Origin: Thermodesulfovibrionales bacterium
Lineage (GTDB): Bacteria > Nitrospirota > Thermodesulfovibrionia > Thermodesulfovibrionales > SM23-35
DNA length: 64,000 nucleotides
Assembly: GCA_963753165.1 (NCBI GenBank)
Contig: CAVWBP010000002.1
Coordinates: 272,301-336,300 of the forward strand
Direction: 5' to 3'
Below, piece after piece: positions 52,543 through 57,858 of this stretch. A program made the position numbers and the translations under genes. The notes under the pieces were generated by a model. It ran no database searches and was not told the DNA's origin. It worked only from the letters and a program-made list of their open reading frames with translations. Positions within the stretch are counted from its first letter, which is position 1; every line of letters starts with the position of its first letter.

Positions 52543-53310
52543 TTAAAAGCTCAGTGCCAGGTTTACGCCGCCGTAGAAAATGTCCTTGTCACCATCATCA
52601 CTGATGTTTTTTATCGCCTCTTTCGCGTCGCTGCTCAAGGGGAACGAGTAAGCGATCTTCGGTGTTACGGATACAGCCTTCCAAACAGGGATAGTCATTG
52701 AGGAAGAGATTTCACCATTGTAGAAGTTGTTGAAGTCCTCGCCATTTTTGTCATATCCCATTACCTTGTTTTTGATGTTATAGCTCACCGATGCTCCCAG
52801 GTCCAGTGACGTTTCTTTCATGACCTCGAAAGAATGTCCGACTGAAGCAACCACGAAGGCGCCCTGTCCCTCATCATAATCATAGTAGATTGTGAGTGTC
52901 GGGCTGAGCAGAGTATCATAGCCAGCAGAGACGAAGAGTTCCTGTGTGTCATTCGCGCCGTCCAGGGCATAATAAATATATCCGGCGGTAAGGGTGATCT
53001 TGTCGATCGAGCGGGTATAGGTCAGGGTTACGTCCGTCTCTGTCATTTCGCCATGTCCGGTATCGCTGCTGGTTGCTTCCGGTCTGTCAGAGTCATAGTT
53101 TGCCCATATATTTGCGCCAAACACTCCATAGGTGATGCCTACGGACGGCTGGACTACCCAGCTATTGCTTAACTTCTGTCCTCTCCATACATAATTGCTC
53201 ATGACATCCGCCGAAACACTTCCCTCTGTCTTGATGTCTTCTGCATAGAGACTTCCTGCTGCCATTACTGCGATGATCATTGCCAGAACCAAAACTTTAA
53301 AACTTTTCAT
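52543..53310 (-). CDS. Outer-membrane beta-barrel, TorF/Gcw_chp-like putative porin
   Basis: Signal peptide, SNYVWRGQ motif, alternating beta strands, C-terminal Phe; upstream of amt-glnK. Confidence 0.75.
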   Translation of the reverse strand: MKSFKVLVLAMIIAVMAAGSLYAEDIKTEGSVSADVMSNYVWRGQKLSNSWVVQPSVGITYGVFGANIWANYDSDRPEATSSDTGHGEMTETDVTLTYTRSIDKITLTAGYIYYALDGANDTQELFVSAGYDTLLSPTLTIYYDYDEGQGAFVVASVGHSFEVMKETSLDLGASVSYNIKNKVMGYDKNGEDFNNFYNGEISSSMTIPVWKAVSVTPKIAYSFPLSSDAKEAIKNISDDGDKDIFYGGVNLALSF

Positions 53311-53372
53311 TTTTCCCTCCGGTATCTTGGTTATTTATATTTTTGCTGCGTACTGCGTAGTGTACTTAGCGC

Positions 53373-53549
53373 TTAATGTTCTCCATCCTCCTCCTTTCTG
53401 ATTTTGTATTTCCTGATTTTGTATCCAATCATCCTTTCCGTTATATCCAGCTTTTTTGCAGCCCTTGCCATTATCCAGTTGGATGTTCTCATTGCATTGA
53501 GTATCTCTTCTCTCTCTATCTCTTTCACTTTTTCCCTTAGCGATCCCAT
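53373..53549 (-). CDS. Stand-alone Fis-type HTH protein resembling the NifA/bEBP C-terminal DNA-binding domain (58 aa)
   Basis: EIEREEILNAMRTSNWIMARAAKKLDITERMIGYKI; RBS AGGTGA before ATG 53549; no AAA+ remnant recognised upstream. Confidence 0.78.
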   Translation of the reverse strand: MGSLREKVKEIEREEILNAMRTSNWIMARAAKKLDITERMIGYKIRKYKIRKEEDGEH

Positions 53550-53570
53550 CGTCTCACCTGTTCTCTTTAT

Positions 53571-53586
53571 ATCGAAAACCGTGCCA
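53571..53586 (-). promoter_or_regulatory. Sigma54-like promoter TGGCACG-GTTT-TCGA
   Basis: Perfect -24 box and G at -13; predicted TSS about 12 nt before the HTH start codon. Confidence 0.65.
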
Positions 53587-53630
53587 GTTTGCAACTTGTT
53601 GATTTAAAAAGGGAAAGAGTATTTGTTGAA

Positions 53631-53674
53631 ACTACAATTTTGTATGACGCTACAATTTTGTAGTACAAATTGTG
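53631..53674. promoter_or_regulatory. Tandem CTACAATTTTGTA sites (53631-53646, 53649-53664) plus a degenerate third
   Basis: Same motif and tandem arrangement as 50421-50453; 45-90 bp upstream of the -24 box. Confidence 0.75.
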
Positions 53675-54098
53675 GTGCGCACAGCAGTTTTCCGGGCGAG
53701 AGGAGGGAATGCCGGAAATTTATGGGCAGAGCAAGTTGTCTCTTAAAGCCGCATACATGATCGTCTTGGGATTGTTGCGACTTTACTTGCTTATCAACGC
53801 CGAGCAAAAATCAAAATCGTTGGAGAGTACACCGGGACTAAACACAGCGGGCTTTGTGTATAGTGAGTCTTTCAAATCGAAATAAATAGCTGTCTTATGA
53901 GGAGATGTGTTTGACCTTTTTGGGAGTGAATGATCTTTGGAGAAAAGTCTACGGTTGAGGGTAGTTGCCTGGCTGTCAGCATCACTGCGGATTTCGGAAA
54001 AGAAGCTTGAAAAACTGGTGGAGCTGATCAAAAAGCGGAATCCATATAAATCCTGCGGTTTAGAAATTCATAGCAAGGTATTGCCGCACCTCTGACAA

Positions 54099-56131
54099 TT
54101 GGCGTGCTGCATGTCAAACATCTGCTACTCGCATCCGTTGCTTAATATGTTAGATGAAGATTACAGATATGAGCAAGACGATGTTATTACCAACAATTTT
54201 TACAGCGACTACATTCAGAAGGCCCCCATTTTTCTCAAGAACGATGCACAAAAACTACGAGAGTTTATTAAAGCCAACGTCAAATACGGAGACAAAAATC
54301 AAATTATGTACCGTATTGATCATGGCAAGATAAAACCATCAAAGAACCTTGCAGATAACCTTGTATCGATGCTTAAGGGTAACGAAGAGTTCATGATGAT
54401 TGACGACCAGAAAGTTGTCTACGAAACGGCTATCAAGCTTGCTGAGAAGTCTTCAGCAAAGAAGAAAAATGTGTTGATCGTTGAAGGCGGCCCAGGAACC
54501 GGTAAATCCGTAGTGGCAATTAATCTGCTTGTTGAACTAACAAAACGCGAACTTGTTGCTCAATATGTGACGCGCAACTCCGCACCCCGCTTGGTGTACG
54601 AAGCCATGCTCACCGGCACGTTCACGAGAACTCATATATCAAATATGTTCAGTGGTTCCGGCTCGTACCATTCAACTGAAGCAAACAGTTTTCGATTGTT
54701 TGATTGTCGATGAAGCGCACAGGCTAAACGCGAAATCAGGGATGTTTAACCATCTTGGTGAAAACCAGATTAAGGAGATAATCAGCGCCAGTAAGTGTAG
54801 TTTATTCTTTATAGACGAAGACCAAAAGGTGACCCTCAAAGACATTGGTGATAAGGAAGAAATCCGCCGTTGGGCAGTAAAGCAAAGAGCAAATGTTACT
54901 GAACTCAAACTAGAATCACAATTTCGTTGCAATGGCTCAGACGGGTACCTTGCCTGGCTTGACAATACGCTACAGATTCGAGAAACTGCAAATGACACAC
55001 TCAACGTTAGTGAATATGATTTTCGCATATTGGACAGCCCAACTGAACTGCATAATATTGATACGTGAGAAAAACAGTGAAAAGAACAAAGCGCGTATGG
55101 TGGCAGGCTACTGCTGGAAATGGATCAGCAAAAAGAAACCAGAACTCAAAGATATTGTTATAGATGGTTACAAAGCGACTTGGAATCTCGACACCGATGG
55201 GCAAGCCTGGATTATTAAACCAAATTCAGTCAACGAAGTCGGATGCATACACACCTGTCAGGGATTAGAATTAGATTATGTTGGAGTGATAGTCGGCCCC
55301 GACCTGGTAGTTCGCGGTAGTAAAGTAAAAACACAACCTGAAAAACGGGCAAGTACGGACAGGTCTATTCACGGGTGGAAACAAATGATAGAAGACGAGC
55401 CAAGAGACACGAGGACGCGCCTTGATGCGATTATCAAAAACACTTACCGGACACTCATGACCCGCGGGCAAAAAGGCTGCTATGTTTACTTTATCGATAA
55501 AGAAACTGAAAGATTTTTTAGAACTCGTATCGAAGCAACAGCCTTAGAAAATGATGTTGTAAGGAACGTTGTGCCTTTGTCTATCCGTAGGCAAGTATCT
55601 CCCAGTTTGCCATTTCGCCGGTTACCTATTAATGAAGTGGTTCCTTTCAAGAACTGCGTGCCTATCTATGATCTAAAAGTGGCCGCAGGTCGATTTAGCG
55701 ATGAGCAGCGGGTTGCTGAAGTGGTTCAAGGGGCGGAGTTGCAGCATCCAGAAGATTATGAGTGGGCTGAACTGCCAAGCGTCTTTCGGCCACAACAGGG
55801 TTTATTTATAGCTCAGGTAATAGGCGAATCTATGAACCGGCGCATCCCTAATGGCGCGTGGTGCTTATTCAGATTGTCACCGGTTGGCACGCGCCAAGGG
55901 AAAGTCGTACTTGTACAACATAGAGAAATTCATGATGCTGATACCGGCGGACATTTTACAGTAAAGACTTATGAAAGCAAAAAAGAGATTTTCCCAGATG
56001 GAACGTGGAAACATAGTCAAATTATCCTAAGACCAGAAACTACGGCGCTTGGATATGAGCCAATTGTATTGAACCCAGAATCTGCGGAAGATTTGCGTGC
56101 CATTGCAGAATTGATTGCTGTGCTTGGATAA
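54099..56131 (+). pseudogene. DUF2075 (Schlafen group 3-like) helicase fused to an S24/LexA-like peptidase domain; N-terminus apparently missing, two frameshifts (~54690, ~55060)
   Basis: GGPGTGKS Walker A, IVDEAHRL, SQFRC.GS.GY, HTCQGLELDYVGVI, YRTLMTRG; C-terminal IYDL.VAAG.F, GESM (Ser) and TVK (Lys). Confidence 0.8.
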
Positions 56132-56180
56132 AGACAATCATGCAAAATTACGCTACGGAAGCATCGAATGGGGAGAGCCC

Positions 56181-56246
56181 TTGAAGCTTGCCCAACCAAA
56201 CCCCGGTTTCTTAATGTCTATGATCAAGGGCAGACCCCATGGAGTT
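56181..56246 (+). repeat. 65-66-bp direct repeat, left copy
   Basis: TTGAAGCTTGCC...CCCCGGTT.CTTAATGTCTATGATCAAGGGCAGACCCCATGGAGTT; near-identical to 57794-57858. Confidence 0.9.
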
Positions 56247-56340
56247 ACCAAAGCATCGAGATGTCCCTGAGGATAATCGATATGTAGTATGATAAGAGCC
56301 AATATAGTCTAACAATGTCAATATTTAGTGGCTTGAATGT

Positions 56341-56360
56341 ATATATCAGATGTGATATAT
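56341..56360. promoter_or_regulatory. Palindromic operator ATATATCA-N4-TGATATAT just before the toxin gene
   Basis: Perfect 8-bp inverted repeat; typical position for TA autoregulation. Confidence 0.6.
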
Positions 56361-56361
56361 T

Positions 56362-56736
56362 ATGAATAAAGAGAAACTGCCGGCTAATATAAAAGTACAT
56401 CCGAGTGTCTTGAGGAGCATCAGGGAAATTGCAGTCCTTGATGAGGAGAAGGCAGGAAAGATTATGCAGAGGATCGTTGGACTGGGGTTGGACCCGTTAC
56501 CTGTGAGCGGCGAATGTAAGTCTGAGACGATCATTAACCTTAGAAAGAAAAGAGTTCTCGTCAAACGGCTCAAATGTCTGGATATCATGCAGTACAGAAT
56601 ATTTTACGCTTATAAAAAATCCGGTTTGATTTGCGTGTATTGCGTTGTTCCGAGGGATAAGGATACCTATAATGAAAATTCATGGCATTATCAAATGGTA
56701 AAGCTTCTTTATGCAAAGTGGAAGGAGTGTCAATGA
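56362..56736 (+). CDS. RelE/HigB-superfamily toxin
   Basis: I...I..LGLDPLP, KRLK...YRIFY, VYCVVPR..TY pattern; first gene of a three-gene operon. Confidence 0.7.
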   Translation: MNKEKLPANIKVHPSVLRSIREIAVLDEEKAGKIMQRIVGLGLDPLPVSGECKSETIINLRKKRVLVKRLKCLDIMQYRIFYAYKKSGLICVYCVVPRDKDTYNENSWHYQMVKLLYAKWKECQ

Positions 56737-57269
56737 CCTCAATTGAAAATCTGCGTTATGAACCTGTTTCTCCATATCAATGGCAATACCCTTTTCAGGT
56801 TATTCCCGTTGCTGATCTTGAGAAGATCTGCGAGACCTGTGACTCGATAAAGGACAAGCACCTTGAGAAGCTCAAGGTTGAAAACAGAAAGCTTAAAAAA
56901 CATATTGCGTTTCTGCAAAATGAAGTGCAGGCATTGGAGTTAAAAACCGCCCTGACAGCGAAGGCTGTTCCCCTTGAGGATATGGTTGCAGAGGTAACCT
57001 CAACGCCTGAAGGTAAGAAAGCATGGGATGAAGCCTGGAAAGAGCAGATCGAGAAATGGCGGAGTCAAATGGAGGCAAGTGCCATCAGCCGGGTGAAATA
57101 TTACCGTCTTCTCAACGGGATGGATCAAAAGACTCTGGCTGAGAAACTCGGCACGGCTCAACCGAACATCAGCAGAATTGAACGTCCGGGCTATAATGTG
57201 CCTGTTGTGACATTAAGAAAGCTTGCGAAGATTTATAACGTAACGATGGAGGATCTCCTTGGCGGTTGA
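56733..57269 (+). CDS. HigA-like XRE-HTH antitoxin with ~80-aa N-terminal extension
   Basis: ATGA overlap with the toxin stop; C-terminal HTH (YRLLNGMDQKTLAEKLGTAQPNISRIER...TLRKLAKIYNVTMEDLL). Confidence 0.8.
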   Translation: MTSIENLRYEPVSPYQWQYPFQVIPVADLEKICETCDSIKDKHLEKLKVENRKLKKHIAFLQNEVQALELKTALTAKAVPLEDMVAEVTSTPEGKKAWDEAWKEQIEKWRSQMEASAISRVKYYRLLNGMDQKTLAEKLGTAQPNISRIERPGYNVPVVTLRKLAKIYNVTMEDLLGG

Positions 57270-57666
57270 TACCGGTATTCAATTCAAGAGTGTCGCATTG
57301 ACTGAACTGTATTTTAAGCGAAACAAATCCTTTGTTCATCCGAAAGACGGTATCCCCATCGAAATCGCTTTTAAAACCAAGAATTCGTTTAGTCCTGATA
57401 AGAAGAATCTTACGGTGGTGCTTTCAGTCAGACTGTTCGAGAAGAGCAAGAACCGACCATTTGAAATAGAAGCCTCTGTGGAAGGAACATTTTCAGGTAA
57501 AGACCATAAAGAGCTTCTGAAATTCTCAAAAATCCTTGCACCAGCACATCTGTTCCCCTTTGTTCGAGAAATAATCGCAAATGCTACGATGAAGGCGAAT
57601 ATCCCTCCTCTTCTCCTCCCTCCGATCAATTTATTAGCAGCACCCGGCAAAAAGAAAAAGAAATAA
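57259..57666 (+). CDS. SecB-like chaperone
   Basis: FEIEASVEGTF, APAHLFPFVREIIA..T...IPPLLLPPIN SecB signature; TTG start with GGAGG RBS. Confidence 0.88.
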   Translation: MAVDTGIQFKSVALTELYFKRNKSFVHPKDGIPIEIAFKTKNSFSPDKKNLTVVLSVRLFEKSKNRPFEIEASVEGTFSGKDHKELLKFSKILAPAHLFPFVREIIANATMKANIPPLLLPPINLLAAPGKKKKK

Positions 57667-57793
57667 AAGCGGCTCAATGCGTTCTTTCATGTCTCTGTCT
57701 ATGTGACAATGACTGTTTGTACTCTGCAGGACCAGCAAACTACTCAGCTGTGCATACTCCTGTGAGAAGTAGGCAGTTGTTGGGGGTAGCCTG

Positions 57794-57858
57794 TTGAAGC
57801 TTGCCAAACCAACCCCGGTTCCTTAATGTCTATGATCAAGGGCAGACCCCATGGAGTT
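57794..57858 (+). repeat. 65-66-bp direct repeat, right copy
   Basis: Matches 56181-56246; ends 14 nt from the uup stop codon. Confidence 0.9.

Follow-up and report, generated by a model that had tools for sequence, protein, structure and literature searches.

In all toxin–antitoxin–chaperone (TAC) systems characterised so far, the chaperone addiction (ChAD) element is found at the antitoxin's C-terminal end (PMC5105189, PMC6377645, PMC11618068, bioRxiv 10.1101/2024.02.24.581848). In HigBA1–SecB(TA) from Mycobacterium tuberculosis (Rv1955–1957) and in HigBAC from Escherichia coli NT1F31, a toxin, an antitoxin with an XRE-type helix-turn-helix (HTH) domain and a SecB-like chaperone are encoded in one operon, and the ChAD is a tail of 45–96 amino acids that follows the HTH domain (PMC5105189, PMC6377645, bioRxiv 10.1101/2024.02.24.581848). 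Here, we analyze an operon with the same gene content, located at positions 56362–57666 of a 64,000-nucleotide stretch (hereafter, the window) from the chromosome of a Nitrospirota-type bacterium (Thermodesulfovibrionales; contig CAVWBP010000002.1, positions 272,301–336,300 of the forward strand), whose antitoxin candidate has its extra segment before, and not after, the core. On balance, the evidence slightly favors a TAC variant with an N-terminal chaperone addiction element. The literature that could be searched does not describe any naturally occurring N-terminal ChAD, which is not a proof of its absence. Below, T stands for the toxin candidate, A for the antitoxin candidate, and C for the SecB-like chaperone; coordinates refer to the window, and features lie on the + strand unless stated otherwise.

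Similar to HigBA1–SecB and HigBAC, the locus combines a toxin candidate of the RelE/ParE superfamily with an antitoxin candidate in which a canonical core is joined to a disordered aromatic-rich segment. Unlike in these systems, the added part also holds a structured leucine zipper and a CxxC motif, Pfam does not identify T as HigB/Gp49, and the added parts show no sequence similarity to each other. CmdTAC (PD-T4-9) and MqsRAC of E. coli also have a SecB-like third gene, the best PADLOC match of C being the CmdC model, and share with several loci of the family studied here surroundings of the defence-island type. In contrast to the locus, CmdT is an ADP-ribosyltransferase, and CmdA consists of two N-terminal helices and a long unstructured C-terminal region ending with LAA (PMC11618068).

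The core of A (amino acids ~79–178), one or more helices followed by a C-terminal XRE HTH domain, resembles the antitoxins HigA2 of the HigBA2 module from Vibrio cholerae (PDB 5jaa) and NGO0477 (PDB 3kxa), and, as in two-gene HigBA-type modules, the toxin gene comes first, with HigB2 among the fold matches of T. Modules of the HigBA2/NGO0477 type, however, have neither a third gene nor an N-terminal add-on of 78 amino acids. An N-terminal neutralising part followed by a C-terminal HTH domain is already normal in antitoxins of the HigA2 and MqsA types. The original prediction for this locus, made from the DNA sequence, spoke of an inverted antitoxin architecture; this is new as regards the end of the antitoxin at which the presumed addiction tag is placed, whereas the layout with a neutralising N-terminus and a C-terminal HTH domain had been known.

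Operon Structure and Gene Assignment

The region 56362–57666 is filled by three intact overlapping open reading frames (ORFs) of the + strand in the order T–A–C. T (56362–56736) encodes a toxin candidate of 124 amino acids with the predicted RelE/ParE-superfamily fold; A (56733–57269) encodes an antitoxin candidate of 178 amino acids with a family of homologues; and C (57259–57666) encodes a chaperone of 135 amino acids recognised by the Pfam SecB profile. The start codon of A (ATG, 56733) shares the ATGA tetranucleotide with the stop codon of T and is preceded by the Shine-Dalgarno site GGAAGGAG at 56720–56727. The start codon of C (TTG, 57259) lies 11 nucleotides within A, and GGAGGA at 57248–57253 serves as its Shine-Dalgarno site. 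The list of ORFs also offers an upstream start of A, ATG at 56682; since both the homologues and the position of the Shine-Dalgarno site fit 56733, the latter was accepted.

Homologous proteins form 39 clusters for T, 118 for A, and 86 for C, and the window genes are full length relative to these families, hence all three genes are considered real. Nearly every cluster of the T family has a length of 124 amino acids, and members of the A family, with clusters coming from Nitrospirota-type metagenome-assembled genomes, have approximately 178–183. The outer coordinates originally given for the operon coincide exactly with the ORF boundaries. The translational coupling ascribed to the genes is confirmed, with the ATGA overlap of T and A, the 11-nucleotide overlap of A and C, and the Shine-Dalgarno sites of A and C, while the order of toxin, XRE antitoxin and SecB is borne out by Pfam HTH_3 in A, Pfam SecB in C, and the fold of T. 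Taking all this into account, we regard 56362–57666 with high confidence as a tripartite module of a toxin, an antitoxin and a SecB-like protein.

Domain Organization of the Antitoxin Candidate

Conservation in A was estimated from the alignment of 99 full-length family members, and the secondary structure was taken from an AlphaFold 2 (AF2) model with a predicted local distance difference test score (pLDDT) of 82. Amino acids 1–25 (56733–56807) are predicted to form a disordered N-terminal tag, with pLDDT of 51–62 and no secondary structure; this is the proposed ChAD-like element. The tag contains strongly preferred residues, namely, Tyr9 (99% of the members), an aromatic residue in position 15 (95%), Trp17 (97%), and Pro20 (82%); Lys or Arg are frequent in positions 6, 8, 12, and 16, and residues outside the conserved positions are variable. 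The aromatic patch YEPVSPYQWQYPF corresponds to amino acids 9–21.

The tag is followed by a long predicted helix, amino acids 26–75 (56808–56957), along which the block-mean pLDDT climbs from approximately 62 to 93. The helix carries the CxxC motif, CETC at amino acids 33–36 (56829–56840), with Cys33 conserved in 96% and Cys36 in 93% of the members, and a leucine-zipper heptad pattern (amino acids 40–72) formed by Ile44, Leu47, Asn51, Leu54, Val58, Leu61, Ile65, and Leu68, of which Asn51 is conserved in 95%, and Leu47, Leu54, and Leu68 in 96%. Asparagine in the heptad position "a" is a hallmark of parallel dimeric leucine zippers. The zipper would probably dimerise A, and the CxxC motif may bind metal. 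The motif is located at the N-terminal end of the predicted parallel zipper; as a speculation, its two copies in a dimer could share a metal ion or act as a redox switch.

The N-terminal zinc domain of MqsA has two CxxC pairs, and A has one CxxC, situated within a helix. The MqsA-like reading of this motif was rejected: the TIGR03830 model yields 16.1 bits vs. the cut-off of 61.8, and covers the HTH part only.

Amino acids 79–115 (56967–57077) form two helices with the pattern AVPLxxxVxExTSTPEGKxAWxxAWKEQ, a candidate toxin-neutralising segment. The XRE/Cro-type HTH domain occupies amino acids 121–175 (57093–57257; Pfam HTH_3, 7e-11; amino acids 120–176 in the AF2 model) and stops three residues short of the stop codon. 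Its Foldseek matches are C.AhdI, 434 repressor, SinR, and HipB. The closest solved structure to A, NGO0477, covers only the last helix before the HTH domain and the HTH domain itself, and structure comparison found no resemblance to amino acids 1–78. A tail after the HTH domain is present in none of the 99 members, all of which end with EDLIGD or a similar sequence. Thus, A has, as the original prediction had it, an HTH domain that runs to the C-terminal end (amino acids 121–175 of 178) and an N-terminal extension with an aromatic patch, a CxxC motif, and a coiled coil, the last one located within the helix 26–75.

Co-occurrence of the N-Terminal Module With SecB

A phmmer search with amino acids 1–95 of A against 1.84 billion representative proteins found ten proteins, nine of which are members of the A family or their fragments, and one is a repetitive protein of 432 amino acids. 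The SecB gene lies directly downstream of the module in all of the approximately 25 assessable loci, which have unrelated flanks; none of these loci combines the N-terminal module with the absence of SecB. The 20 genome loci encoding the module all have the SecB-like gene directly at its 3′ side, and the same is true for the metagenome contigs L039, L049, and L050 (here and below, L numbers denote loci, and P numbers, proteins). SecB also accompanies the most divergent members, P0250 (L041/L042) and P0248 (L040), the contig of the latter ending 34 codons into the SecB-like ORF. As to whether the extension occurs equally in operons without secB, a question raised by the original prediction, the module is found solely in the A family and always with SecB downstream.

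The toxin gene is less constant. It is found upstream of A in 15 of the 20 genome loci; in L002 and L006 only a fragment is present, and in L016, L019, L020, and L022 no T was detected upstream, with the contig ending within or just before A in three cases.

A Sister Clade With DUF6941

Four distinct loci form a sister clade: L021 (3510–4869; identical in sequence to L038, 5528–6971), L023 (3394–4674), L033 (211–1422), and L035 (59–1370). One more locus, L034, ends too early to be judged. T of the sister clade is homologous to that of the SecB clade at 30–34% identity, and the antitoxin core is 45% identical over amino acids 81–176 of A, with nothing alignable before; hence, amino acids 79–115 are the sole segment preceding the HTH domain that can be aligned between the antitoxins of the two clades. 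The first approximately 70 amino acids of the sister antitoxins are unrelated to those of A and contain a hydrophobic run, for example, CVLVFFVPSD. The coupled third gene, in turn, encodes not SecB, but a DUF6941 protein (PF22091, E from 5e-10 to 9e-14) of approximately 132–137 amino acids. We found no description of DUF6941 in the searchable literature, no match to it among PDB sequences, and no significant PADLOC match (the best E-value being 0.024).

The homologous T, antitoxin core, and operator (see below) are retained, and both the N-terminus and the third gene differ; therefore, the N-terminal module changes together with the third gene. The same antitoxin core combined with either SecB or DUF6941 provides a natural experiment for mapping the dependence of toxin–antitoxin (TA) modules on accessory proteins. 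A possible, if tentative, generalization is that chaperone addiction is a swappable cassette of a tag and its cognate holder, which may reside at either end of the antitoxin and may employ holders other than SecB, DUF6941 then being a second class of TA-dedicated chaperones, possibly with a sensor function. This would be the first candidate role for DUF6941.

The SecB-Like Chaperone

C scores 42.3 bits with the Pfam SecB profile (cut-off 26); its best match in the defence-system library is PADLOC PD-T4-9_C, the CmdC chaperone model (5e-16), and the profile of the C family aligns with E. coli SecB over positions 10–130. SecB's C-terminal helix is the part that contacts SecA. Of the 155 residues of E. 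coli SecB, residue 138 is the last one aligned with C, and, judging from the length of C, the SecA-contacting helix is probably missing. The most conserved stretch of C, IPPLLLPPxNL, is located past the helix α1. In the M. tuberculosis chaperone, residues Leu154–Pro155–Pro156–Leu157 form the pocket for Tyr114 of the ChAD (PMC6377645), to which IPPLLLPPxNL would correspond by positional analogy and not by direct alignment of the two chaperones.

C, being a true homologue of SecB, might be a chaperone of general protein export that only happens to adjoin an ordinary two-gene HigBA-like pair. We find this highly improbable, given the 11-nucleotide overlap of C with A, the T–A–C synteny retained in approximately 25 loci with unrelated flanks, the length of C with its alignment ending before the end of E. 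coli SecB, the CmdC model as the best match, and the clade of C, which is as narrow as that of A. The identity of C as a housekeeping SecB was rejected, as the best NCBIfam SecB equivalog yields 41.5 bits vs. the cut-off of 143.

The Toxin Candidate and Its Promoter Region

The AF2 model of T (pLDDT 79) has the topology β–α–α–β3–α, that is, E-H-H-(H)-E-E-E-H. Foldseek ranks 1–26 among PDB structures are RelE/ParE-type toxins, namely, PfiT, RelE1 and RelE2 of M. tuberculosis, ParE1, ParE2, HigB, HigB2, and YoeB, with E-values from 1e-3, probability up to 1.0, and target-normalised TM-score up to 0.78. T matched no family in Pfam, NCBIfam, or PADLOC at E ≤ 0.1, and the profile of the T family had no match among PDB sequences. 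In members of the T family, matches to toxin families stay below the Pfam thresholds: ParE_toxin in six out of 26 members, Gp49 in two out of 26, and YhaV in some. The predicted structure thus supports the assignment of T to the RelE/ParE superfamily, with membership in HigB not established; of the earlier label "RelE/HigB-like," the superfamily part stands, while HigB is too specific. In the T family, Arg79 and Tyr103 are invariant, and Arg98, His109, and Lys114 are conserved in at least 90% of proteins, a pattern compatible with an RNase site, although not mapped to a known active site.

A promoter-like element, TTGAAT and TG-n-TATATT separated by 17 nucleotides, precedes T at 56333–56361 and is a candidate operator for the HTH antitoxin. 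It contains the perfect palindrome ATATATCA-N4-TGATATAT (56341–56360), which overlaps the −10-like box and to which the HTH domain of A would bind. The corresponding TTGACx / TATATCA-N2–4-TGATATA element is located directly 5′ of T in 13 out of 13 homologous loci and is present in the DUF6941 clade as well; altogether, it is seen in L001, L004–L005, L008–L015, L017, L021, L023, L035, L040, and L041. In the SecB-clade loci, the element ends 0–1 nucleotides before the ATG codon of T, and in the DUF6941 clade the same element is located 12–17 nucleotides upstream of the start codon. Because the element ends at the ATG codon, a standard transcription start would fall inside T, implying that in the SecB clade the start of T may be leaderless or otherwise unusual. 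In the SecB clade, the window included, the start of T lacks a Shine-Dalgarno site; the first 13 residues of T are conserved at the protein level.

In L002/L048 (T region at approximately 3804–3992 of L002) and L006 (3924–3992), T is truncated or decayed, and the genes for A and SecB are intact. Toxin-less antitoxin–chaperone pairs of a similar kind were reportedly described by Sala et al. in 2013.

Could T be a non-toxic protein of the RelE/ParE fold, and the operon, a regulatory or other one and not a TA system? The lack of a match to a curated toxin family, the conserved residues not mapped to a catalytic site, and the start of T, where the promoter-like element abuts the ATG codon and a Shine-Dalgarno site is lacking, would fit such an explanation. 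We nevertheless consider it improbable, as all the first 26 Foldseek ranks are TA toxins; the toxin-first order, the XRE antitoxin and the autoregulatory-looking palindrome match the usual layout of HigBA-type modules; the gene for T is decayed in L002/L048 and L006 with A and C intact, as expected of a harmful gene; and restriction–modification (R–M) and other TA genes are found as neighbors.

Proposed Mechanism

SecB-binding and ChAD motifs have a disordered, aromatic and basic composition (PMC5105189, PMC6377645, bioRxiv 10.1101/2024.02.24.581848), and the known ChAD contacts are Trp108, Arg110, and Tyr114 in M. tuberculosis and four spaced aromatic residues in E. coli HigA (PMC6377645, bioRxiv 10.1101/2024.02.24.581848). 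It has been previously demonstrated by Bordes et al. that a ChAD remains functional when grafted N-terminally onto luciferase or GFP, its performance being, if anything, slightly improved (PMC5105189); hence, a natural N-terminal ChAD is mechanistically plausible.

Proceeding from the observed gene structure, homology, domain layout, co-occurrence with SecB, and the swap in the sister clade, we infer how toxicity, binding, chaperone dependence, and the trigger might be arranged. T would probably be a translation-dependent mRNA endonuclease, the predicted fold fitting an RNase and a gyrase poison alike. A would comprise a HigA-like core (amino acids ~79–178) and an N-terminal add-on (amino acids 1–78). 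In the core, the two helices preceding the HTH domain would probably hold T, and the XRE HTH domain would probably sit on the palindromic operator; in the add-on, the leucine zipper probably dimerises A, and the disordered aromatic and basic tag of amino acids 1–25, with Tyr9, Phe or Tyr15, and Trp17, would dock into a tetramer of the SecB-like C in the manner of a ChAD peptide. By holding the tag, C would keep A soluble and protected from degradation, and T would thereby stay neutralised; titration of C by a competing client, e.g., a nascent structural protein of a phage, would set T free. That the N-terminal tag of A is the addiction element appears to us slightly more probable than its negation.

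Several observations weigh against this interpretation. The swap between the SecB and DUF6941 clades spans the whole of amino acids 1–78, and the partner-specific part could thus be the zipper or the CxxC motif and not the tag; moreover, the N-terminus may have diverged together with the toxin, at 30% identity, and not with the third gene. The mirror-tree analysis of distance-matrix covariation, in which four parts of A were each compared to C and to T over 13 triplets, gave no signal, the correlations ranging from −0.01 to 0.38, with −0.03 for T vs. C, so that the result is uninformative. On the side of the toxin, the missing family assignment, the conserved residues not placed in a known active site, and the promoter-like element adjoining the start codon, all described above, belong here as well.

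In another explanation, the operon is a T–A–SecB module, and amino acids 1–78 serve for dimerisation via the zipper, metal or redox sensing via the CxxC motif, or neutralisation of the toxin, SecB binding to the linker at amino acids 76–92, to the unfolded core, or to T. The zipper and the CxxC motif are conserved at least as strongly as the tag, antitoxins of the HigA2 and MqsA types neutralise their toxins via N-terminal parts, the covariation did not single out amino acids 1–27 as tracking C, and T has strongly diverged between the clades, so a toxin-binding N-terminus could have followed it. We see this explanation as the main alternative, albeit a rather unlikely one: amino acids 79–115 are the only part before the HTH domain common to the clades with homologous toxins, which fits toxin binding by this segment; the N-terminal module goes strictly together with SecB; and the disordered aromatic and basic motif resembles targets of SecB-type chaperones (PMC5105189, PMC6377645).

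If the tag of A indeed is an N-terminal addiction element, it has consequences for the current understanding of TACs. Both the models that describe co-translational assembly and those that explain phage sensing through chaperone titration rest on the C-terminal layout of addiction. An N-terminal tag leaves the ribosome first, and the chaperone could then engage the antitoxin while its remaining part is yet to be synthesized, an arrangement so far represented by artificial grafts only (PMC5105189). Searches for TACs limited to C-terminal tails would miss systems with N-terminal tags.

Genomic Context of the Operon

The operon is located in a low-GC stretch at approximately 53250–57750 (0.39–0.46 vs. 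0.52–0.63 in the flanks), which is flanked at one end by genes for an ammonium transporter and glutamine synthetase and at the other end by an ABC-F gene; there is no tRNA gene. The stretch, which contains a disrupted helicase gene along with the TAC, has the appearance of a small acquired island. The cassette is bracketed by a direct repeat of 66–78 nucleotides, with the left copy at 56169–56246 and the right copy at 57781–57858, the latter ending 15 nucleotides from the stop codon of the ABC-F gene, which is encoded by the − strand. The copies are 82% identical over 78 nucleotides and differ at one base in a 46-nucleotide core, with zero such repeats expected by chance. Among the 16 loci checked, the repeat is confined to this genome. 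An RNA or a terminator was rejected as its identity, since there is no Rfam match, and the repeat does not fold more stably than shuffled sequences (z = 0.62). The repeat may be a footprint of insertion or duplication of the cassette; no integrase was seen. Searches of viral contigs revealed no relatives of T, and matches to A at the level of the HTH domain only, yielding no evidence of phage origin.

Defence and TA genes are found near the module in other loci. In three out of six contexts inspected, the TAC lies directly downstream of R–M genes (L037, 13–5530; L048, 1–3847; L049, 1520–6507), which are HsdR/M/S or a methyltransferase and a helicase, and in L039 and L050, it is found beside TA genes of the PIN, Fic, or DUF433 types. 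An anti-phage role of the operon is plausible, by analogy with known systems and from this neighborhood.

Upstream of the operon, at 54099–56131 on the + strand, there is a gene for a helicase of the DUF2075/Schlafen-group-3 type with an S24 (LexA-like) peptidase at the C-terminus, which has a weak match to PADLOC PDC-S41. The gene is split over three frames, whose products cover profile positions 1–74, 75–204, and 206–354; this means two frameshifts, so that either the gene is a pseudogene or the assembly is in error here.

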